Source: Mobula hypostoma | Taxonomy: Eukaryota | Assembly: GCF_963921235.1 (NCBI RefSeq) | Contig: NC_086108.1 | Location: 45,634,001-45,698,000 of the forward strand | DNA: 64,000 bases | Reading direction: 5' to 3' | Part shown: positions 19,217-64,000 of the stretch, piece after piece | How positions within the stretch are numbered: the stretch's first letter is position 1 | How the letters are laid out: the number at the start of each line of letters is the position of its first letter | Program-made: the position numbers and the translations under genes | Notes under the pieces: generated by a model | Told to the model about the DNA's origin: nothing | Database searches by the model: none | Seen by the model: the letters and a program-made list of their open reading frames with translations, nothing else

Positions 19217-19890
19217 TCAAATGGGATCTCCAGGCGAACCACCAGGCTTGTCCGGATTGTCTCGATGTAAATCTTGGATGAGGGAAGGGTCCAAGATGAA
19301 GGAGCAGGGAATCCAGGTGCGCTCCTCAGGACCGTATCCCTCCCAATCATCCAGGTACTGGAGACCCCTGCCTCGGCGACACACATCCAGTATTCGCCAG
19401 ACAGTGTAAACTGGGTAGTTGTCAATGACCCAGGCGGGTGGAGGAGGTTCAGCAGGAGGGCACAAAGGGCTGACGGAAACAGGTTTCTGTTGGGAGACAT
19501 GGAACGTGGGATGAAAGTGCATGGATCTGGGCAGTTTGAGTTTGACCACCAAGGGGTTGATGATGCTCTCAATTTTGAATGGTCTGAGGTAATGAGGGGC
19601 GAGTTTCTTGGGTTCATTCTTGAGGGGGATGTCTTTTGAAGAGAGCCAAACCTTCTGACCAGGCTGATGGTTGGGCACAGGAATTCGATGGCGATCGGCA
19701 ATCCTCCGGTTGCAGTCGGCTGAGCGGAGCAGAGCTGCGCGTGCATCCTTCCAAATCTTGTGGCACCAGCGGAGATGGACCTGAACTGAAGGCACATTGA
19801 TGTCGCCTTCCTGTGCTGGAAACAGAGGGGGGTTGATAACCGGGGAGAGCATTCGAAGGGAGACATTCCAGTGGCGGTGCTAACCAGGGA
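19217..19890 (-). pseudogene. Gypsy integrase C-terminus with GPY/F region and chromodomain
   Basis: [65 protein letters not shown]. Confidence 0.85.
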
Positions 19891-25287: not shown

Positions 25288-26988
25288 AGATAAAAGATCA
25301 CTTAGTATTTCTATGTCTAGTAACTAATTAGTGTCTACTGCTGGTAGATATGTTTATAGACAATAGTGAATGACACAACCAATCCCATGGTCCAAAGATA
25401 TGTTTCAAGTTTCAAATTTAGTTATCATTCAACCATACATGAATATCACGAAACTAAACAGCATTCTTCCTGGTTCAAGCTGCAAGTTCATATTCAATCT
25501 TAAGATCAGGTTTAATTGTCATTCAACCATATATGCATGCCCATGAAAACAGCCAAACGAAACAGCATTGCTGTATGCTAATATGCAACTGGTAATATGT
25601 TTTATACATTACCAACAGCAAACAGCACACTGCACGTAGCACGTAGCGCAAGTAGCGCATATGGTTACGATTTCAGAAAAACATACAGTCACAAAGAGAA
25701 AGTAAATGTATATAGTCCAAGTCTCTGTGTTGTCCCAGTCCAGCTTGTTCTTCCACTGAATGACAGCAGAGAGCACCAAGCTAGCACCGGAGGGCAGCAC
25801 TGAGCAAACACCAGAGGTGCTAGCTTGAAACCCAGTATGAAATCCAGCGGTACACAGGACATCTCTAGCGTGTCCTTCGCCAGTGTCCACAACAGGTGAG
25901 TTCGAGGCACGAAGGCCGTGTCTGCGCAAAATCCAAGGTATCACAGCTGCCCTGCCGTCAGTCTTACAAATGAATCAGTGAACCGAACTTGCAGCACCCT
26001 ACGTCACCAATGTCCAACAGGGCTTTGTGATCACGATGAAAACGTCCAGTACAATCATTTGCACCTTGTTCTGAACCGTGCACCATCTCGGCACAACGAT
26101 ATGCAACGTGTCCAGGTGAAAACATAGCAGTAAGTCTAGCTCTGTCACTATCGGCCAACTAGCTGATGGGATGGTCCTGCAGTCCTTAATGTTTTTTGGT
26201 ATCCAGCAGTGGCTTGCGATTGTATAAGGTTCGTACAGGATGAACAAGTACGCCTTAGACTGGACCCGGAGTGGCTGCTGTGTCTGAGCATGCTGCCATC
26301 TTACTGGAAATTCATTATCCAGGATCACATCTGAAGAATAACTGACTTAAATAGTGACAGAGGGATGATCACACCATAGAAGCTGTAAAAAGACTCCAAC
26401 AGAACTAATTTCCTCAATTATTCCTTGACTGGTCATCACTTCTAATTGGCTTAGTTTACTTAAACAATAAAAATTATTCTGTTTAAAGAAATGTTACTCC
26501 TTTCCCAATCTGAGTGATGCCTGTGGTGGCTTTAATTCTTCCCCGTAACTTGAGCTATTTCAGGTTGATAGATTAAAACTCTGGATTGTATCAGTTGCTG
26601 CCAAACCCTGAGAATCATAATGCATTCCTTGTTTAATATGACTCCAGCCAGTAGAAAGTTCCAGAATTATGTGGGTGGGTGCCAATGTTAAGATGTATTA
26701 ACTCCCACAGCAATGAAAATTATGCGGTGTTGTGGTGATATTAACTCAAAAATGGTTTAAAAAGCCCTAAATTCCAGAAGAATAAAATATATTGATAAAT
26801 TGACACATGAGGCATGCATTCCTCTGGGAATTTATTCTTCTGAGGATGTGAAGAAGAACGTTTTAATGCAATGAGTGGCATTGATCTTGAGTTCTGCCTT
26901 CGAGAGTGGTAGAAGTAGAGATGATTTATGATTTCAATAGGAAATAGGACAAACACTTGAGAAAAATATTCAGATATGATCCTGGATA

Positions 26989-28101
26989 ATGAATGTTGCT
27001 ACAGTTATCAAGGATGTGATAACAGCACATTTGGAAAGCGGTGAAATGATCGGACAAAGTCAGCATGGATTTGTGAAAGGAAAATCATGTCTGACGAATC
27101 TCATAGAATTTTTTGAGGATGTAACTAGTAGAGTGGATAGGGGAGAACCAGTGGATGTGGTATATTTGGATTTTCAAAAGGCTTTTGACAAGGTCCCACA
27201 CAGGAGATTAGTGTGCAAACTTAAAGCACACGGTATTGAGGGTAAGGTATTTGTGTGGGTGGAGAATTGGTTAGCAGACAGGAAGCAAAGAGTGGGAATA
27301 ACCGGGACCTTTTCAGAATGGCAGGTGGTGACTAGTGGGGTACCGCAAGGCTCAGTGCTGGGACCCCAGTTGTTTACAATATATATTAATGACTTGGATG
27401 AGGGAATTAAATGCAGCATCTCCAAATTTGCGGATGACACGAAGCTGGGTGGCAGTGTTAGCTGTGAGGAGGATGCTAAGAGGATGCAGGGTGACTTGGA
27501 TAGGTTGGGTGAGTGGGCAAATTCATGGCAGATGCAATTTAATGTGGATAAATGTGAAGTTATCCACTTTGGTGGCAAAAATAGGAAAACGGATTATTAT
27601 CTGAATGGTGGCCGATTAGGAAAAGGGGAGGTGCAACGAGACATGGGTGTCCTTATACACCAGTCATTGAAAGTGGGCATGCAGGTACAGCAGGCGGTGA
27701 AAAAGGCGAATGGTATGCTGGCATTTATAGCGAGAGGATTCGAGTACAGGAGCATGGAGGTACTACTGCAGTTGTACAAGGCCTTGGTGAGACCACACCT
27801 GGAATATTGTGTGCAGTTTTGGTCCCCTAATCTGAGGAAAGACATCCTTGCCATAGATGGAGTACAAAGAAGGTTCACCAGATTGATTCCTGGGATGGCA
27901 GGACTTTCATATGAAGAAAGACTGGATGAACTGGGCTTGTACTCGTTGGAATTTAGAAGATTGAGGGGGGATCTGATTGAAACGTATAAGATCCTAAAGG
28001 GATTGGACAGGCTAGATGCAGGAAGATTGTTCCCGATGTTGGGGAAGTCCAGAACGAGGGGCCACAGTTTGAGGATAGAGGGGAAGCCTTTTAGGACCTA
28101 G
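26989..28101 (+). pseudogene. CR1 ORF2 reverse transcriptase domain (truncated; premature TAG at 28099)
   Basis: SQHGF..SCLTNL, YLDFQKAFDKV, GVPQGSVLGP, FADDTK, RPHLEY. Confidence 0.9.
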
Positions 28102-31030: not shown

Positions 31031-34021
31031 ATCGTGACACCCATGCTTTTGCACTGTATTTACAAGTCTCAGGAACACATATGTTCTGCTCTCTCATCAC
31101 ACGCTGTCACTTTCAAGAATATATACATATGTGCACCTAGATCTCTGTTTCTGCATCCCCCTTTAAAATTGAGCATTTAGGCTATAATTTCCTTCCTTAT
31201 TCTTTCCAGGGAAAATAGCTTAATACTTTAAACCTCCGTATTACTGATCATTGGTCACTCTGTGCATTTAGCCGGACCATCTATGTCTTGCAGATTATTA
31301 ACTTCCTCCTAACTGTCAACCACATTTACTAAACTTTATGCCTTATGACCTTTTAAAAATGTTCACATGATCTAAGTAGGAAGTGGTCCAAATTGCAATT
31401 TTCCATAACATGAAGCCATGTTATATGTGCATGCATAAAGAAACACAATTTGAAAAATATCGCATTTATTATTTTTCAATCAATTCTGTGAGTGTGAATT
31501 TTATTCCGTGCTTCAGACTTTTGGGTAATGATTGGTGAATTCTGAGTGGGTGAATTTCCGTTACCCAAACGGCTGTAATGCTGGTGTTATTATTTCTACC
31601 CCCTCTTTAATGAAGATTTTGACAGCAACATAATTTTTCTTTAGTAAGGACTGATGCAAAGTATTCACCAATTACATCATGCTTTGATCATCTTCTTTAT
31701 CCCTTCCTCCTCTTCCTACCCACTTACTGTTTGTGTTTCTGTAGAAGACATATTCAGTGCCTTGGTAGGTTCTATTTCTTTGCTGGTAATGGCACATATT
31801 CATTTTGCCATCTTACTAACCTTATCTAGCTGTCCTGCTTTCTTCAGTAGTATATCACATGCACAGTATTGTCCCTTGATCCTCTATATTTTTCAAAATC
31901 CTGTCATTTATTGTGTATTGCTTTGCTTTGTTTGACCTCCCCCAAAAGCTCTACATCACACATTTCTGGATTGAATTCCATTTCCAATTTTCCACTTGGC
32001 CACAACTTACTTTCTCCCTTTCAGCCAAACAGATAGGTTTAGTATCTGTAAACTTTGTATTCCTGGCCTCTGACGCCGTTTAAATAGAACACAGAACATA
32101 GAAAGTTGAAATCTACAGCATATTACATGCCCTTTGGCCCACAATGTTGTGCTGACCATGTAACCTACTCTAGAAACTGCCTAGAATTTCCCTAGTGCAT
32201 AGCCCTCTGTTTTTCTAAGCTCCATGTACCTATCTAAGAGATCTTAAAAGACCCTATTGTATCCACCTCTACCACCACCGCTGGCAGTGCGTTCCATACA
32301 CCCACCATTCTCAGTGTGAAAAACTTACCCCTGACATCCCCCTTGTACCTACTTCCAAGCACCTTAAAACTATACTCCCTGGGTTAGCCATTTTAGCTCT
32401 GGGGAAAAGCCACTGCCTATCCACACGATCAATGCCCTGCATCATCTTATACACCTCAATCAGGTCACCTCTCATCCTCCGTCACTCCAAGCAGAAAAGG
32501 CCAAGTTCCTCAACCTATTCTCACAAGGTATACCCACCAATCCAGGCAACATTCTTATAAATCTCCTCAGCACTCTCTCTATAGTATCCGCATCCTTCTT
32601 GTACTGAGGTGACCAGAACTGAACACAGTAGTCCAAGTGGGATCCGACCAAGGTCTTTTATAGCTGTAACATTACCTCGTGGCTCTTGAACTCAGTCCCA
32701 TGGTTGATGAATGCCAACACACCAATCAACTTCTTAACAACAGTGTCAGCCTGTACAGCAGCTTTTTGTGTCCTATATTATATTCTGTCTTCAAATTTGA
32801 CCTACCAAAATGAACGACTTCACACTTACCTAGGTTGAAGTCCACCTGCCACTTCTCAGCCCAGTTCTGCATCCTACTGATGTCCCGTAGTAACCTCTGA
32901 CAACCCTCCAGACTATCCACAACAACCCCAATCTCTGTGTCATCAGCAAACTTACTAACCCACCCTTCTACTTCTTCATCCAGGCCATTTATAAATATCA
33001 CAAAGAGGAGGGGTCCCAGTACAGATCCCTGCAGAACACCACTGGTCACCGACCTTCATGCAGAATATGAACCATTTACAACTACTCTTTGCCTTCTGTG
33101 GGCAAGCCAAATCTGGATCCACAAAGCAAAGTCTCCTTGGATCCCATGCCTCCTTATTTTCTGAAGGAGCTTGGCATGGAGAACCTTATCAAGTGCTTTA
33201 CTGAAATTCATATGCACTACATCCACTGCTCTACCTTCATCAATGTATTTTGTTACATTCTCAAAGAATTCAATCAAGCTCATAAGGCACAATCTGCTGT
33301 TGTCAAAGCCATGCTGACTATCCTTCATCAAATTATGTCTCTCCAAATGCTCATAAATCCTGCCTCTCAGGATCTTCTCCAACGACTTGCCCACCACTGA
33401 AGTCAGACTCACTGGTCTATAATTTCCCATGTTATCTCTAGTCCCTTTCTTGAACAAGGGAACAACATTTGTAACCATCCAATCCTCCAGTACTTCTTCT
33501 GCCCCTATTGATGACACAAAGATCATTGCAAGAGGCTCAGTAATCTCCTCCCTCACTTCCCACAGTAGCCTGGGGTATATCTCATCCGGTCCCGGTGACT
33601 TACCTAACTTTTCAAAAGCTTTTTAATGCTTTTCAAAAGCTCCAGCACATTCTCTTTCTTAATGTTTATATGCTCAAACATTTCAGTCCACTGTAAATCA
33701 TCCCCACAATTGCCAAGGTCTTTTTCCCTGGTGAGTGATGAAGCAAAGTATTCAAGTACCTCTGCTGCCTCCCCCGACTCCATGCACCTGATTGATCCTA
33801 TTCTTACATGGCTCATCCTCTTGCTTTTCACACACTTGCAGAATGCCTTGGGGTTTTCCTTAATCTTGCTCACCAAGGCCTTCTCATGGCCCCTTCTGGC
33901 TCTCCTAATTCCATTCTTAAGCTCCTTCCTAGCAACCTTGTAATTTTCTAGAGCTCTACCAGTACCTAGTTTCTTGAACCTTTCGTAAGATTTCTTTTCT
34001 TCTTAGCTAGATTTTGTACAT

Positions 34022-34924
34022 TGTTATGTACCCGGTAACTGGGTTGCCAAACCAGCAGAAATGGATCACTCAGTTGGAGTCTGGATTACTAGAACTAAGA
34101 AAGTTTTATTAATGAAACAAGCAACACAGTACTCTAATCAAAAGGATAATGAATGCAACAGTTCAGCAATGATAAACACACATGTACACAGAATTAAGAT
34201 AACAAGATCAATCAAGCTCTATCGTTGTCTAGGGGTAAATGACCAGTTTCAAAGTGACGCAAAGTTCAGTTCAATTTAGTTCAGTTCAGTTCGCAGCAAT
34301 CGCTGCCGTGGGAGATGGACAGTGGGGGGAAGGAGAGAGAGAGCAAAACGAATGAATATTCAAATGGCTTCCACACACAGGCCTTCAATATTCTTCGCAG
34401 TCAGCTTTCCGGCGAGCCCTTTGTGATGTCATCTGAGGTCACCGACCGTGACCCCTCCGTTTCCAGATACGATCATTTCTCTGCGGTGAACCTGGCACTC
34501 AGGCAAGGATGGACACACACCAGGTTCCCGCTGATCATGCCTTTCCACCCTGTGTGTCCATGGCTTGGTCCCACAACCAGCCTTCCAAAACTTCCCACCG
34601 ACTTGTGGGAGACGCACCGCTTCCAGGGTCTCGTTACCTCGTGGTGTCGTGTGTGTCTTGCCTTAGCGAACCTGTCCCTTTTTATCCCCCTGCTGGGGTA
34701 TCGCCTGTCCATCACTTCAAACAGTTCAGCGTTCAAAGGGGGAGCCGATCTTGACAGCTCTCCTTCCGTTACTCTCTCCCGTCCCTTCATTAACATCTCC
34801 AAATGCTGCTCCATTGTTTTCCTTCTCTCTCTTTCTCCTGAAGACAGGTGGCAGACCAACTGCTGATCCCACTGGTGCCAGCCCAGGCCAGCTAACATCT
34901 TAATTTATGTGTATTCTCGTCACA
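34022..34924 (-). repeat. 3' LTR
   Basis: Direct repeat of 38038-38940, same length, scattered substitutions; TGTT..CACA ends. Confidence 0.95.
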
Positions 34925-35577: not shown

Positions 35578-37938
35578 CTAGCCTAGCGTAACAAACACCA
35601 CCCAACGTCCCAGTTCTTTGCATCGCCTCGAGACAATCAAACACACGTGTGCGAGTTGGTTAATTACTTCTCCTAAAGAGTCGCTTTGTTCGGGGAATAA
35701 GGGAGAGACCTTATCAGCAGAGCTGGCCAAAACAATAGCCTTCTCCCATCTGGTTGATACCATACTCATCTTTTCAAAATAGTTTTTTTCTCTTATCAGG
35801 GAGACCCTAGCTTCATTGACTTCCGCGCTAACACCGACTAGGTTTGTTAGCATATCAAAAGCCTGTGACCGTCTCAGTTCGCGTCTGCCATGATCAATAA
35901 CATCCTTCCTCCTGGGCAGCCGGTAAACCTCTTTCATGATTCCACCAACTGTTTCCTCCAGCACCACAAAATGTCCACCGGGGGGTACCTTGTGGGCCAG
36001 GTTAAAAATCTCATCCCCATAACTCTTTTGCACCACCCCCCATTCCTCATCTGCAGGTACGGTACTTGGTTTCCCTTTCTTCCTTAGCACTTCCTCCTCC
36101 ACACAATAGCCCACTGGTTCCCTTGTTAATTCTGTGTCAGAGAGAGCTGTCTCTGCCAAAACCCTCAGCCCTTTGTCTCGCTCCTGCACCTGCACAAATT
36201 CTTTCCTGGCTAATGCTAAGTCTGTCTCAGCTCCCTCACTACCTTTTGTTTCACTACACTCCTTCTTTTCACTTTCTACCCCCTTCTCGTACAAGGCTGG
36301 CAGAAACGTCTCAGCTAAATTTGCTACCGCAGCCCCATGATGAACCTGTGAGTCCATGGGCGGGGCCTCAATGCTGGCAGGCTGACCTGTCGATCTCACG
36401 ACTGGGAACACGATTCCCCCGGCGAGGTCATTACCGAGCAAGACTTCCACGCCTTTCATCGGTAATTCGGACCTCACCCTGATCGTGACTAGTCCAGAGA
36501 CCAGGTTGCTTTGTAAGTGTATCTGGTGCAAAGGGACTGACTCTGTCCCTTCCCCAACACCTTTGACCTTTACCTCCCCAGTCTGGGTCTCTGAGCTAAA
36601 CTCTAATACACTCTTCAGTATTAGTGACTGACACGCTCCCGTGTCTCTCCAGATCCGCACTGGAACTGGTTTTAACCCCTCCTTCACTGACACTAATCCG
36701 GCCGAGATAAACCTCTCGCGCCCTTCCTGAACTTTGGCAGACCTGTCCTGTCCTAGCGGTTCGTTTACCAGCTCGATACAGCCAGTCAAAATCCCCGTTT
36801 TTCCTTTTCCCGTCTCCTTCTTTGGGGCAAAGCACCTGGACACAAAGTGTCCGACTTTCCCACAATTATAACAGACGACCCCAGGAGATTTCCTACCAGA
36901 CTGCTCCCGGTCTACCTTATCCTTCTCACTAGTCCCCGGCTTACTTTCTGACTTTTCTGGCGGACTCTCCCTGCCATCCTGACTACCCTTCTGGTAGCCT
37001 TTACTTGGGGCAAACTTCATTTTATGCGTCAACGCATACTCATCCGCTAACTTAGCATTTGCAACTAACGTGGCTGCCTCTTTCTCATCTAGGTAGGGTC
37101 TCATACCCTCAGGGACACAACCTTTAAACTGCTCAATCAGGATCAGCTGTAGCAGTCTGTCATAATCCCCCTCTACCCCCTTCGAGGCGCACCAACGCTC
37201 ACAATATGTCTGCATCTCACGGGCAAACTCTAAATACGTGCGGTCCCACTGCTTCCTCGCATTCCGGAACCTCTGCCGGTATGCCTCCGGGACCAACTCA
37301 TAAATCCTGAGGATGGCCTCTTTCACCACCTCATACCTCTGGGCATCTTCCGCGGACAAAGCTGTGTAAGCTTGTTGGGCTTTCCCTTTCAGTACACTCT
37401 GAAGCAAAACAGCCCACTTATCCCTCGGCCAGTCCTGACTTGTAGCAACTTTTTCGAAATGGAGAAAGTACCGATCCACGTCGGTATCGTCAAATGGGGG
37501 AACTAGCCTAACCTCCTGGGTCGCCCGGAACCCTCCACCTTGGTTCGGTACGGGCCCCTTCTCTGCCCTTATCTTTAACTTCTCCAGCTCGAATTCCCTT
37601 TCCCTCTGTTTCTCCTCTCGCTCCAACTGTCTCTCTCTCTCTTTCTCTTCTCGCTCCAACTGCCGTACCCGGAACTCATGCTCGAGTCTCAGTTTTTCAA
37701 GCTGCACCTGTACCGCGTCTCCAGCAGGTTTTTCAATAGACACCACCTCCAGCTCCCCTTGGGGAAACACACCTTTAGATACATAGTGCTCTACGATAGC
37801 TCTGTGTATCTCCTCTCTTCTCATTGTCGACTTCCCCTTAGCAAAATTCAACCGTTTGGCCACAGCTACCAATTCCGCTTTCCTGGCATCCTCTAATGCC
37901 TGCAAGGTCGGCGCCTTTATAAATTCCTCAGCCTCCAT
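35578..37938 (-). CDS. Gag (coiled coil, SCAN-like capsid CTD, CCHC knuckle)-aspartic protease polyprotein with integrase N-terminal remnant
   Basis: 786-aa open frame; PEAYRQRFR..LILIEQF..LADEY (SCAN-like), CYNCGKVGHFVSRC, RDTGA, LLGND, LAHKVPPGGH. Confidence 0.88.
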   Translation of the reverse strand: MEAEEFIKAPTLQALEDARKAELVAVAKRLNFAKGKSTMRREEIHRAIVEHYVSKGVFPQGELEVVSIEKPAGDAVQVQLEKLRLEHEFRVRQLEREEKERERQLEREEKQREREFELEKLKIRAEKGPVPNQGGGFRATQEVRLVPPFDDTDVDRYFLHFEKVATSQDWPRDKWAVLLQSVLKGKAQQAYTALSAEDAQRYEVVKEAILRIYELVPEAYRQRFRNARKQWDRTYLEFAREMQTYCERWCASKGVEGDYDRLLQLILIEQFKGCVPEGMRPYLDEKEAATLVANAKLADEYALTHKMKFAPSKGYQKGSQDGRESPPEKSESKPGTSEKDKVDREQSGRKSPGVVCYNCGKVGHFVSRCFAPKKETGKGKTGILTGCIELVNEPLGQDRSAKVQEGRERFISAGLVSVKEGLKPVPVRIWRDTGACQSLILKSVLEFSSETQTGEVKVKGVGEGTESVPLHQIHLQSNLVSGLVTIRVRSELPMKGVEVLLGNDLAGGIVFPVVRSTGQPASIEAPPMDSQVHHGAAVANLAETFLPALYEKGVESEKKECSETKGSEGAETDLALARKEFVQVQERDKGLRVLAETALSDTELTREPVGYCVEEEVLRKKGKPSTVPADEEWGVVQKSYGDEIFNLAHKVPPGGHFVVLEETVGGIMKEVYRLPRRKDVIDHGRRELRRSQAFDMLTNLVGVSAEVNEARVSLIREKNYFEKMSMVSTRWEKAIVLASSADKVSPLFPEQSDSLGEVINQLAHVCLIVSRRCKELGRWVVFVTLG

Positions 37939-38014
37939 TTCTGCTGTTTGTCTTTTCTTTCTTTCAGGAATTTTAACCCAATCAATTTACTCCGTCCCAA
38001 ATTTAGCGTTCAAA

Positions 38015-38037: not shown

Positions 38038-38940
38038 TATTACGTACCCTGTAACTGGGTTGCCAAACCAGCAGAAATGGATCACTCAGTTGGAGTCTGG
38101 ATTACTAGAACTAAGAAAGTTTTATTAATGAAACAAGCAACACAGTACTCTAATCAAAAGGATAATGAATGCAACAGTTCAGCAATGATAAACACACATG
38201 TACACAGAATTAAGATAACAAGATCAATCAAGCTCTATCGTTGTCTAGGGGTAAATGACCAGTTTCAAAGTGACGCAAAGTTCAGTTCAATTTAGTTCAG
38301 TTCAGTTCGCAGCAATCGCTGCCGTGGGAGATGGACAGTGTGGGGAAGGAGGGAGAGAGCAAAACGAATGAATATTCAAACGGCTTCCGCACACAGACCT
38401 TCGATATTCTTCGCATTCAGCTTTCGTGCGAGCCCTTTGTGATGTCATCTGAGGTCACCGACCGTGACCCCTCCGTTTCCAGATACGATCATTTCTCTGT
38501 GGTGAACCTGGCACCCAGGCAAGGATGGACACACACCAGGTTCCCGCCGATCGTGCCTTTCCACCCTGTGTGTCTATGGCTTGGTCCCGCAACCAGCCTT
38601 CCAAAACTTCCCACCGACTTGTGGGAGACGCACCGCTTCCAGGGTCTCGTTACCTCGGGGTGTCGTGTGTGTCTTGCCTTAGCGAACCTGTCCCTTTTTA
38701 TCCCCCTGCTGGGGTATCGCCTGTCCATCACTTCAAACAGTTCAGGGTTCAAAGGGGGAGCCGATCTTGACAGCTCTCCTTCCGTTACTCTCTCCTGTCC
38801 CTTCATTAACATCTCCAAATGCTGCTCCATTGTTTTCCTTATCTCTCTTTCTCCTGAAGATAGGTGGCAGACCAACTGCTGATCCCACTGGTGCCAGCCC
38901 AGGCCTGCTAACATCTTAATTTATGTGTATTCTCGTCACA
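38038..38940 (-). repeat. 5' LTR
   Basis: Direct repeat of 34022-34924; followed on the minus strand by the PBS. Confidence 0.95.
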
Positions 38941-58136: not shown

Positions 58137-60199
58137 AGTGAGAAGTGTTAGCTTGATTTCTCTCACCATAGATATTGCCAATCAGCTAAATGTTCCAGCA
58201 CTTGTCCTTGATTTCCAACGTCTACAGTTGTGTTTTCTCCGCATCAGCTATTACTTAGCCTTTTGGACAATTTGCTTAATTAGGAAGTCAGGCTGCCAAA
58301 TGCTTTATGTAATAACCCATCTAGTTACAGGAGGCAGAGAATTATATTGCAATTCAATTATTATTATTATTAAGATATACACCAACAAATTAGAAGCTTG
58401 GCCTTCAATGGTATGCTCATATCTGAATGTAGTGATCCCTGAGTTAACTGTATTGCATTTCCCATAGTTTTGGTGTATCCTTTAAGGAGCTTCTTTAAGA
58501 AGATTGGAGCATTCAACTCCAAGCATTTAATTACTTTCAGAACATGGGACAATACCTGCCTCGAATGGCTCACTCAGTCACTGGAAAGAGAGACAATGTT
58601 CCTCAGTTTTAATTGCAACCATCTAAGCAAAGATATACCCAAATATAAAAGTTAGGAGGAAATTTATGGGAAATCATTTCACCTTCCCTTTCAGTATCCA
58701 CCTTGAGAATCTCAAATATGAGAGATGAGTATGAATACGGTATGTTTGAGAGAAAAGCACAACAAATAGGACCTTATCTCACCCAAGATGACTGACAAAA
58801 TGTAAGAATGTTTCTCAGCCTTGTTTGGTTTCAGCATTCACTCCGGGAAGTACATTCTATAGATACATTTTGGGAACTGTTTGAAGTTCGTTGGCAATGC
58901 TGGCCCACGAGTGATAACCGTTGAGCAGTGTACTTAAGAAACTGATTCACAGTAAAGAGTCAACATCTTCAATAGAGAAAAAAAAGTGATAAGGAAAGAA
59001 ATGAATTACCAAACATATTACCTTCCCTACATCTTCAATGTTTCTTCAGCTCCCCCAGTCCTGGGGAATCACATTTTAAGTCTATTATACAACTATTTAG
59101 CATGTGATTTATGAGACAAAGCATTAAAGTGGATAATAATCCGCTGTAGGAGTGCTGTGCAATTACAAGATCAAAGTTTGACATCTTCTTCTAACTGAGA
59201 TTTGTAACTGTGATATGGTGGCTAAAAGAATCTCTTATTAATATAAAAGGAAGAGCTTATGGAAATTGATTGCCAAGTCAGCAGCAACCCATGGGAAAAA
59301 AGGTTGAATGCAGGACATAATATATAACATACTGTAACTAAAATGTAAACTTGTCATTTTCATGCAAAACAATGGGTCAATTTAAACAAGTACTGTTTAG
59401 GAAATAAAAAAGACATATTGGAAGTGGAGGAGCGCAGTAAAATTTTTACACTATTGATGGAATTGTGCATCAGAAAAGCAAAAGACAAAGGCAAGGGAAT
59501 TTCTTTTGCATATACACATATTTGAATATGTATGCAATAAGCAGATGGATTTAATCTAAAACCTGAACTCCAGAAATGGATGTCCTGTCTCACATGGTAT
59601 TCCTACATCATTTCCCATTCAAATCCTAACCAAGTCTGAGTCTGCTCAGTTCACTTCACCAAGTCATGACCAAGCAGATCCAATCCGTAACCTGCAAACT
59701 ATACAATGGATCAATAATTCTCATTATAAATAATTTGAATATCACCTTCACCAATAAGCTTGTATGTCCTTAGTGGCTATTATACGATAACTCTAGGTAA
59801 GTTTGTTGTTATGTTTCAAGCTAATTAACTGCATTGAACCTTTCATAATCATATGGTATTTGAGATCCTTATGGCAAGCTGTTTATTGTAACAGAATAAT
59901 TGATTTTATCAGCCTGTCCACTTAGACTGAAACAAATTAGTGAAAGGTAATCAAGTTCAAGAGTCACGTCTGAATTGCCATAACATAGTTTTGTTTTAAT
60001 TTGATTAAATTCCAAGTATAATGAACATTTTTCAAAATTATTTATTACCAGAAGAGATAATTACAGGTACTAAGCATAGACATCCTCCTTACAGTGCTCA
60101 TTTTAGGATTTATTTTTATCAATTTGTCTACATTTTTAAAATTTGCATTTCCCATCAATAAATGTGAAAATTAATTGAGTCTGCCTCAAGTCCGTGATG

Positions 60200-61059
60200 C
60201 TAGGTTTTACCTTCTTGCCTTTCGCCAAGTGCTTTCAAAGATTTTTCTGCCACTTTTCCATCACAGACAGCTGTTGTTTGGGAACCCTCCTTTACGGCAG
60301 GTAAAACCATTGTTGTGCTCCCCAAGAGGGCACTAGTAGAGTGAGCCAGGGAGGTAAACTGTTGCCTCAGGCTAGGGTGCTGGAAGGTCATGGTGCTCCA
60401 TAAAGCAAACTCACTAGAAACAAAGGGGTGATTTCCAGACAAAGTTGGTCTGAAAAATGTTGGCACTGGATAATGACTAGGCTGTGTAACTGTTTGATTT
60501 AGATTAGGCAAACTTGCCACAACATTATGGTTGCTGGGAGCTACCTGGAATGGATCAGATGGGGACCTAAAGGCAGAACTCAGTGACCAAGCTGTTGAGG
60601 ATAAAGGATAGTGACCGGAACTGCAGTCAGCTATGTCCTTGGAATTCTGCTGACTTCCCCTTCTCCTAGCATTACTGGACAATAAGGTTTCAATTGCTGA
60701 AACCAAGTCATCACTGCACCCTTTCAGTATCAGTTCCAACACAGACTGTTTCTGGTTTGGAAATATTTTTGTCAGAACTTCAATAGGAGGTCTTTTGAAT
60801 TCCCCTGGAGGGAACATGTCCTTAAGTACATCTTCAGACTTAAAGAACTTCTTGATGTCTTTGAAATTATATCTGGTGCCATCTTTAACCTGTACTGTGT
60901 CTTCCTTCTTTTGCTCTGTGTCATTGTTTGACTCAGCCAGTAGTGTTGGTGCATCACTATTCTGGGTATCTGTGGGTGAAATCAACTCTTCTACATTATT
61001 TTCCATCATGTTTATTTGCTTCTTCTCATTAACATTTCCTTCTGCATCTTCATATTCAT
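60200..61059 (-). CDS. dmrt3-like: Terminal coding exon of a DMRT3-like (doublesex/mab-3 related, DMA domain) transcription factor
   Basis: DMA domain [38 protein letters not shown] (60680-60793); DMRT3-type motifs YPLSSTAWSLSSAFR and LWSTMT.Q; splice acceptor TTTTCAG at 61060 with an open phase-1 frame (EYEDAEGN..); stop at 60200; AATAAA on minus strand at 60109 and 60041. Confidence 0.88.
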
Positions 61060-64000
61060 CTGAAAATATATAAATACAATATTATAAATGGTGGCAAATA
61101 ATCGGCTTGCAATGTTGTGTATGGTAATCCATAAGAATACATTTTTTACAATGTTGCATTTTGGAGAATAATTTTATGAAGGGCCTATCTTTCTTTGACT
61201 GCTTTTTTTTCTATCAGATTTTGAATTTGGTTGTCGACTTCCTCAACTCTTCACATTCTGGCCTGTTCATATCACCAGTGGAACACGATATTTCCGGCAA
61301 AGGGTTGGTTCTGGTGTATCCAATAACCTACCTCTTCAGACAGTTAACATACTACCCGTATGTAGCTCAGCAAAAATCATCTAATTGTCCTTCAGGTATA
61401 TACAAACCTCTACAGCTACCCCAAATTCGGACTGTGACATTGTTCTGCACGCCATACTCCCCAAGAGATCATTGAATTCGGCTCATATGGAGATTATTCT
61501 GGACTACGGCGCTTCTTCCACTGCTGAAACTTTGTGTGCAAGTTGAGCAGTGTTTCTGTGTTCTGCCACTTCCTTGTGTATTAAAACCCAGTACTCATCA
61601 AACCTTTTTGGGGAGTCGCAAGGGACCGAAGCTGCTGGAATCTGTAGCAAAACAAAAAAGAAACTGGAACCGAAACGCCGACCAGAACCTCCAGTCCACC
61701 GGTGCTCTACGATCGGCTCGGTTCGTCTACAACCTTTTTTCTGTCTTTTCCAACAGCCTGTGTTTTTGGATCACCGCGGATGTTCTCCGCAACTGGATTC
61801 ACTTTAGAGTGTGACCATTTGCTAAGGATTGCCGGCCAGCAAATGAGGCGAGTTCGCGTTCATTTAAACTGAATATTAATCTGACCAATATTTGTTGTTA
61901 TATATAGAGGGGTCATACTTTACTTAAGTCTGTATGTTATCTGTTGGCGGATATCATTTTTAAAAATTTCAGTCCATTTGTAAACTTTTTGGAAGGAAAA
62001 CTACGTGAAAAGTTTGTCGCCTTCCCAAATTGCGGAAGCGAGTTCGCCACACATCCATGAAATAACCACTCGCTGTTCTTTTTTTTACTTAGAATACATG
62101 GTAATATTTAAAATATAGGTAACGTATTATTTCTTTGCAATAACTCAGATTAAAGTCAATAAGGGAAAACGAATCACCCAAGTGAGATCTATTTAAAATA
62201 TCGCACATATAGGACAGGGACAGAAAACAGTTTGACTGTACGTGTGATCTGCCTGAACTGAGAATCGCTTCGTCCGAACATCCAAAGAAATTATAATCCA
62301 GCAAAACTCTCGCCAATTTGATAAACCTTTAATTAAATAGAATAACTCATTATTTACATGAAAGTGTCCCGTTAGTTTCTATCTGATTAATACTCATAGA
62401 TTCAAATGAAAGTTATGGTTTACTTGCGTGTTTTTTTTTGACATTTTGTTCACATTATTCGAATGTAAATAGTATTGACAAGAATAACACGTCACCAACA
62501 ATTTATAACAGGTTACCAGTTGATGTTGTAAACAATTTGTTAGATACTTCAATTTATAACCTGTTATACGTTATTATTTTCGTTTGTCCGGCCAAATCCA
62601 AATCGTATCTACTCTGTTTCAACCGTACGGAACAACTTTTTTATTTTGCTTAAACTCTTGATTGATAATGTGAAAAGGTCAATCGGCTCCTTTAGTTAGA
62701 GCAGCAACCTCTGACTATCTCAGTATAGTTCAGCAATCGGCATTGGGGAGTCTTTGCAGAATGTCAATCTAGATCATTGCTATATACTTTAAATCTATAT
62801 TTGGAACAAACATATGGAAATGTCACTAAAGTGTTTTATCAAAATTTATTAAAGCGCGGTTTTATTAAAATAATGACGTTCATAAAAGTAAGGTTTTTAA
62901 AAAGAAATATGTAGAAATGATCCCAGCAGTAGGTCTCTCTTTGTTTCAATTGTAACCAGGCAATTTGATCCCTTAATCCTTGCACTGTGCAGATTAATCA
63001 CGTCCCTGGGGCTGAAACGGTAAACGCGGGTCATCCAAACAGATCAATCCCCCCTTTCACCCCAACGCAATTATCATAACCAGAGCCTCATGCCTTTGAA
63101 CTAGCCGGCTCTTTGATTTGTTATGTTGAGAATTAACGCGGAAAAAACAAGCAGGAAGCCAATTTGTAGTAAGAATAATAAGACCCTTAAGTGTTCACAG
63201 ACAAGAGGATAACAAGTGTGGCTTGCTATGCCACTGATTATGCAGTTAAAATGACATCCAGATTGTTGCATTCACTCCAGATTCTGTGCTCCATTCATTA
63301 AACTAAAACGCTCTACCCCCTTGTTCGACATAAGTAATTCATGTCCATGTAGCCATGAAATTGTTTGCGGAATTTTTTTAAGGGGCAATATTATATTTCT
63401 TGTTAACCTTCCTGGAGTCGGAAAAATCTTGCGAAATCACCTCACACGTAATGAAGATGAGGAGACAGATGAGGTGCTTTTGCTAACTGAACAAACACCC
63501 CTAATACATAGAATTTTTTTTCGCAGTGGGTTAGTTTAATATATGCTGAACAAATCGGGATTCCCCATTCCTGACCGCCCGAGTCTACGGCCAGGAGAAT
63601 CAGACTGTTTGGGGTGTTCAAAGGGGGTATGAGTTGCAGGCGTGAAAAAAAAAAACCCGTCCAATTCTCTCATTCGGGGCAGATTTGAGGAATTCTGTCT
63701 TATAATGTTTCCAGAGGAGAAAAAAATAAACATCCAATTTTGTAGACTCCCTTCATGCTAATATCTCCATGAATGCAAGCTTGTAACGTTGTTACATGTC
63801 CTGGAAAATAGCAAACTCCCCATTATGAATTAAGTACAACAGTGGCCGCCTCGTTCTTAGAATGGGTGAAACAAAACGGATCATACATTGTATGCTGACG
63901 TTTTGAAAAAAAAATTCTTAAAGGCTTCCTCATACAAAATGAATGTATTTTTAAATCTAAATTCCCAAGTGAATGTGAGACACTTACCAGGTCCCAAGAG

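Follow-up and report, generated by a model that had tools for sequence, protein, structure and literature searches.

A second dmrt3 gene of sharks and rays, intact and most likely a first-round ohnologue beside dmrtb1

Elasmobranchs carry a second dmrt3 gene, dmrt3b, whose last coding exon lies in a 64,000-nucleotide stretch of the Mobula hypostoma genome (contig NC_086108.1, positions 45,634,001 to 45,698,000 of the forward strand; hereafter the window). Very probably, dmrt3b is a real, intact and elasmobranch-wide paralogue of dmrt3 and, beside dmrtb1, most likely an ohnologue from the first vertebrate genome duplication (1R). A first-pass annotation of the window had described a divergent DMRT3-like gene, either a genome-duplication copy or a lineage-specific duplicate, with possible relevance to sex determination. 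The second dmrt3 is upheld and a genome-duplication origin is the best reading, while the lineage-specific duplicate and the link to sex determination are not supported. The features of the gene in the window are the following.

60200..61059, minus strand: last coding exon (exon 2) of dmrt3b, residues 133-418 and TAG stop, from the open reading frame and protein identity
61060..61085, minus strand: splice acceptor of phase 1, a T-rich tract and CAG, from the sequence and from contigs leaving the window at 61062
60686..60793, minus strand: DMA (DMRTA motif) domain, CUE-like, from Pfam PF03474
60566..60589, minus strand: DMRT3-type W..SAFR motif, residues 290-297, from alignment with dmrt3a and with lamprey and hagfish DMRT3
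60362..60427, minus strand: 22-residue C-terminal block, residues 344-365, a diverged DMRT3 'LW.TM' region, from the clade alignment
61060..64000, minus strand: 3' part of dmrt3b intron 1, without DM match, the DM exon lying beyond the window
59983..60199, minus strand: 3' untranslated region containing AATAAA-like sites (near 60109 and near 60041); contigs extend to 59983 and 60004 but cannot define the transcript end

The frame is open from stop to stop over 293 codons (61081-60200, minus strand), and the TAG stop occupies 60202-60200. The acceptor, ending at 61060, and this stop confirm the exon bounds of 60200..61059 given at first reading. Exon 2 is 100% identical over 286 aa to the M. 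hypostoma protein XP_062921002.1, which is 418 aa long, with a DM domain (PF00751) at 22-68 and the DMA domain at 222-257; the dmrt3b protein of Mobula birostris differs from it in exon 1 only. Pfam recognizes the DMA domain (PF03474) on exon residues 89-124 with an E-value of 8.8e-16 (57.6 bits, with the cut-off at 23), and the motifs after it are recovered in an alignment with DMRT3 from shark, gar, mouse, lamprey, hagfish and amphioxus, in agreement with the DMA domain and downstream DMRT3-type motifs of the first-pass annotation. The W..SAFR motif is almost invariant across the elasmobranch dmrt3b clade, and the 22-residue block is identical in 20 of the 21 dmrt3b proteins, the exception being the white-shark model. 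That model (Carcharodon) has another C-terminus after the SAFR motif, reflecting either an erroneous model or a genuine change in this species.

Neither a DM profile nor sequence queries revealed a DM exon in the 64-kb window, and queries with DMRT1, DMRT2-like, DMRTA and DMRTB1 gave no other credible match in it. The best DM-profile match of the window, near 32180 (E 0.016), was dropped, being without the cysteine pattern. A strong GT donor-like site stands at the window edge (63980-64000, minus strand); as exon-1 donor, this site near 63988 was discarded, since exon 1 in fact ends in a different sequence, one that the window does not contain. The intron sequence at 61001-64000 has a high CpG content (observed/expected 0.66-1.05) and contains no self-repeats, in contrast to much of the window; it may carry regulatory elements. 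TCF/LEF-like sites number 4 in 2.9 kb of intron against 50 in 60 kb, an enrichment too small for a claim.

Orthologues of dmrt3b were found in 21 elasmobranch species, and 19 of these also possess the canonical dmrt3a, always on a sequence of different length; in M. hypostoma, dmrt3a is on a 73.2 Mb sequence and dmrt3b on one of 118.1 Mb. A separate canonical dmrt3, on which the first-pass reading depended, is thus present on another sequence. In Narcine and Stegostoma, both with dmrt3b, no dmrt3a was among the matches listed, and in Pristiophorus and Callorhinchus dmrt3a was found and no dmrt3b was seen. The two proteins share 39.6-44.3% identity within species (18 species pairs). The M. hypostoma protein is 41.6% identical to the dmrt3a of its own species, which itself reaches 62-77% identity with DMRT3 of the elephant shark and of bony vertebrates; the divergence beyond the level of an orthologue, suspected from the letters alone, is real. 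Equally borne out is the missing acidic tail, since its C-terminal motif occurs in 0 of 21 dmrt3b proteins against 18 of 20 cartilaginous-fish dmrt3a proteins. Within elasmobranchs, dmrt3b evolves somewhat faster than dmrt3a.

Vertebrate DMRT3 or dmrt3a (DMRTA3; in Mobula, XP_062925280.1 and XP_072137208.1) has the same DM and DMA architecture as dmrt3b and shares with it the N-terminal, W..SAFR and LW.TM motifs. In the DM region, 50 of 55 residues of dmrt3b are those of dmrt3a and mouse DMRT3, against 42-45 of 55 for the other subfamilies tested. The two genes differ in overall sequence (about 42% identity), in the acidic tail, which dmrt3b lacks, and in location: dmrt3a belongs to the dmrt1-dmrt3-dmrt2 cluster, whereas dmrt3b is on another chromosome, beside DMRTB1.

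The gene neighbourhood was read from protein records. In all seven species for which both lengths came from one chromosome-scale assembly, dmrt3b and DMRTB1 are on a sequence of the same length. They form one RefSeq locus in Amblyraja (XP_032884009/010) and Leucoraja (XP_055498192/193), carry consecutive accessions in Hypanus and S. canicula, and have non-adjacent accessions in the other three. The Heterodontus record XP_067894174 is a fused model with DMRTB1 in front of dmrt3b. These RefSeq merges of dmrtb1 and dmrt3b in three species (Amblyraja, Leucoraja and Heterodontus) might represent read-through transcription or an annotation artefact. The best non-shark matches of the neighbouring DM protein are DMRTB1 of birds and reptiles, and six full-length shark and ray proteins score higher with a DMRTB1 profile (177-210 bits) than with one of fish DMRT1 (106-120 bits); judged by these comparisons, the neighbour is DMRTB1. 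The dmrtb1 side of the synteny proposed in the first-pass annotation is thereby borne out in related species. The protein search returned no DMRTB1 from Mobula, so the adjacency in this genus is deduced from Hypanus and the other species; the 60 kb downstream of dmrt3b in the window contain no DM exon.

RefSeq names most of the shark and skate DMRTB1 models 'dmrt1-like'. Intact DMRTB1 (dmrt6) models exist for sharks and skates, among them the little skate (XP_055498193.1, 316 aa), a species whose dmrt6 is called a pseudogene in PMC6737965. In Callorhinchus milii, a DMRTB1-like fragment without DM domain was observed, and PMC6737965 gives no dmrt6 for this species.

The age of the duplication was addressed with a tree of 45 proteins, chosen from about 390 fetched. 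In it, dmrt3b groups with deuterostome DMRT3 (99/97), apart from DMRT4/5 and DMRT93B, and its clade nests within vertebrate DMRT3 (95/94) and is excluded from the group of all 23 jawed-vertebrate dmrt3a proteins (96/99, and 96/97 in a second tree). On this placement, the duplication predates the split between cartilaginous and bony fishes. The stem branch of dmrt3b is long (1.4 versus 0.65 for dmrt3a), so long-branch pull may deepen its placement, a bias that approximately unbiased (AU) tests share. Hagfish and lamprey DMRT3 join dmrt3a weakly (87/82 and 74/70), and the tests do not reject either alternative (p-AU 0.18 and 0.34). Because the tree cannot place the cyclostome proteins, the timing at 1R rests on the published synteny of flanking genes.

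Those paralogon data lead us to infer an origin of dmrt3b in 1R. In gar, dmrt6 and dmrt2b are at 9.46 and 9.45 Mb of LG10, and dmrt1, dmrt3 and dmrt2a at 47.3 Mb of LG2 (PMC6737965, Table S1). The supplement of PMC8040251 assigns LRP8 (gar LG10, 9.51 Mb) to quadruplicate C and VLDLR (LG2) to quadruplicate A of one paralogon, and the same paper has A/B parting from C/D at the first genome duplication. On this basis, dmrt3b would be the missing middle gene of a dmrtb1-(dmrt3b)-dmrt2b cluster, sister to dmrt1-dmrt3a-dmrt2a, and would have been lost in bony vertebrates.

An unlikely alternative is that dmrt3b arose as an old segmental duplicate in the jawed-vertebrate stem, or in the second genome duplication (2R), and came to lie beside dmrtb1 later. 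A clade of dmrt3a and dmrt3b without the cyclostomes is not rejected (p-AU 0.176), and dmrt2b was located in no elasmobranch. Against a later arrival, the order and strand in the fused Heterodontus model, dmrtb1 and then dmrt3b, mirror dmrt1 and then dmrt3 in gar, and the flanking paralogons A and C parted at 1R.

It is still less probable that dmrt3b is a duplicate peculiar to elasmobranchs, or to cartilaginous fishes as a whole, with rapid early evolution. Such a history would agree with its detection in elasmobranchs only, with the long stem and with the somewhat faster evolution relative to dmrt3a within the group. However, AU tests on a 21-protein subset reject both an elasmobranch-only origin (p-AU 0.0012) and one confined to cartilaginous fishes (p-AU 0.0046), which leaves the lineage-specific option of the first-pass annotation unsupported, and dmrt3b is in the paralogous cluster, not beside dmrt3a.

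Loss in bony vertebrates, as the 1R reading implies, is likely, given that protein searches show a gap below the dmrt3b clade; unannotated copies would escape such searches. Among 1.84 billion representatives, a profile search found one member of the dmrt3b clade (902 bits), followed by canonical DMRT3 (275 bits). In the 90% collection, no protein scored between 441 and 260 bits among the best 120 of 838 matches, and a profile of exon 2 of the clade gave no standout among about 150 listed non-clade representatives (best 115 bits). The pairs dmrt2a/dmrt2b and dmrt4/dmrt5 are attributed in PMC6737965 to vertebrate genome duplications, as dmrt3b is here; both pairs are kept in bony fishes, but a second dmrt3 was not found there.

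Extra copies of DM-domain genes, as dmrt3b is, include the sex-linked medaka dmy/dmrt1bY and Xenopus dm-w, and a comparable sex-determining or sex-linked role for dmrt3b has been considered. The argument for it is one of analogy only: dmrt1 duplicates have been recruited twice, according to PMC6737965, and the neighbouring gene, DMRT6, is highly expressed in coelacanth testis, as PMC3636272 states. We regard this role as very improbable. The medaka and Xenopus genes are young copies of dmrt1, whereas dmrt3b is an ancient dmrt3 on a large chromosome; a derivation from dmrt1 is contradicted by the tree and by the DM region, with 42 of 55 residues shared with a fish dmrt1 against 50 of 55 with DMRT3. 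The sequences with dmrt3b measure 118 Mb in M. hypostoma and 115 Mb in Hypanus, compared with 45-73 Mb reported for their X1/X2, and 104 Mb in the zebra shark, compared with about 17 Mb for its X. Their size, beyond that of an X, indicates an autosome, and the interest in sex determination raised at first reading is therefore unsupported. In PMC12318234, shark and ray sex determination is reported to be based on X dosage, a male-specific Y gene having not been found; 'dmrt' is absent from its supplement text.

The gene is an intact, spliced, two-exon DM and DMA gene. The exon junction is carried by contigs from all four sequencing runs examined, out of 18 listed, which come from three studies and are only guessed to be RNA. 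In each of the four, contigs exit the window at 61062 and run on into sequence coding for the last part of exon 1 in the RefSeq protein, a stretch absent from the window, which means that the junction between the DM exon and exon 2 is spliced. The first-pass annotation had placed a DM exon beyond 64000, and it is indeed this exon that is joined to exon 2. Compared with contigs of the most distant of the four runs, 22 coding differences are listed, 20 synonymous and 2 non-synonymous (pN/pS 0.03 for exon 2, binomial p 8e-12); the exon is under purifying selection. A run-contig match of 47 bases at 61612-61658 is probably a repeat and was disregarded. That dmrt3b is a pseudogene or a truncated dmrt3, a possibility the first-pass annotation had tied to a lack of DM exon or transcript and which the missing acidic tail and the RefSeq label 'truncated-like' might suggest, can be dismissed with near certainty, as 21 species keep an open frame, the two exons are joined by splicing, pN/pS is low, and the label is no evidence of truncation, being also attached to the full-length DMRT3 of amphioxus (550 aa) and acorn worm (507 aa).

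Several properties of the protein can be predicted. As its DM region is so nearly that of dmrt3a, the DM domain is expected to recognize the DNA sites of DMRT3; a PDB search matched solely the DM domains of DMRT1 and Doublesex. The DMA domain of human DMRT3 binds ubiquitin, according to PMC7538159, and conservation suggests that the DMA domain of dmrt3b would do the same. Long retention under purifying selection together with a remodelled C-terminus suggests that dmrt3b likely persisted by assuming some of the expression of the ancestral DMRT3. The tissue might be the testis or germ line, together with dmrtb1, which is our tentative first choice, and the nervous system is a possible site that ranks only slightly below it. 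The lean towards the germ line comes from the gene models that merge dmrt3b and dmrtb1 in three species, merges that may be annotation artefacts. According to PMC10169611, spinal dI6 interneurons require DMRT3 in mouse and zebrafish.

A broader scenario can be put forward, which we consider doubtful as a whole. Sharks and rays alone would keep the full dmrtb1-dmrt3b-dmrt2b cluster, the three-gene cluster would predate 1R, and DMRT1 and DMRTB1 would both descend, as ohnologues, from a single germ-line gene. In the germ line, dmrt3b and dmrtb1 would be transcribed together, and in sharks the two dmrt3 genes would divide the gonadal and neural roles of DMRT3 between them.

The gene has probably appeared in print once. 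Table S1 of Mawaribuchi et al. 2019 (PMC6737965) enters 'dmrt3a' and 'dmrt3b' of the little skate, Leucoraja erinacea, by contig number; in the main text, as far as available, the skate 'dmrt3b' is never named, and no synteny, age or distribution is given. It is, like dmrt3b here, a second gene of subset 3. Since the proteins fetched include exactly two of DMRT3 type from the skate, that 'dmrt3b' is probably the same gene, a match made without sequence comparison. The name 'dmrt3b' also occurs in the literature listings seen for a sea cucumber and a sole. A literature search, with subscription papers outside its reach, found no published studies of elasmobranch dmrt3b. Before this analysis, dmrt3b existed as a database prediction with one probable naming in print, and this literature yielded no characterization of it.

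DMRT1 is the main testis regulator of vertebrates. A dmrt3 copy right behind dmrtb1 supplies the gene missing from the paralogous cluster, and with it the ohnology of DMRT1 and DMRTB1 becomes testable by synteny. Elasmobranchs often keep ohnologues, and this common retention, together with the previous prediction and probable naming, limits the surprise. In PMC6737965, DMRT1 and DMRTB1 (dmrt6) 'might emerge' in early vertebrates, and their origin is otherwise left open. The pair dmrt3a and dmrt3b offers a natural two-gene system for separating the neural and gonadal roles of DMRT3. In expression work on sharks, dmrt3b should not be mistaken for dmrt3a, nor its RefSeq 'dmrt1-like' neighbour for DMRT1.

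The rest of the window is rich in mobile elements. An open frame of 802 codons at 35581-37986 (minus strand) with SCAN and zinc-knuckle domains is probably an LTR-retrotransposon gag, and near-identical repeats at about 34258-34904 and 38274-38920 flank it. Pieces of reverse transcriptase and a piece with Tf2-type SH3 and chromodomain occur at 26980-28098 (plus strand), 33059-33622 (minus) and 19220-19879 (minus). About 25% of the window is self-repeated, and the 60 kb downstream of dmrt3b are rich in retroelements.
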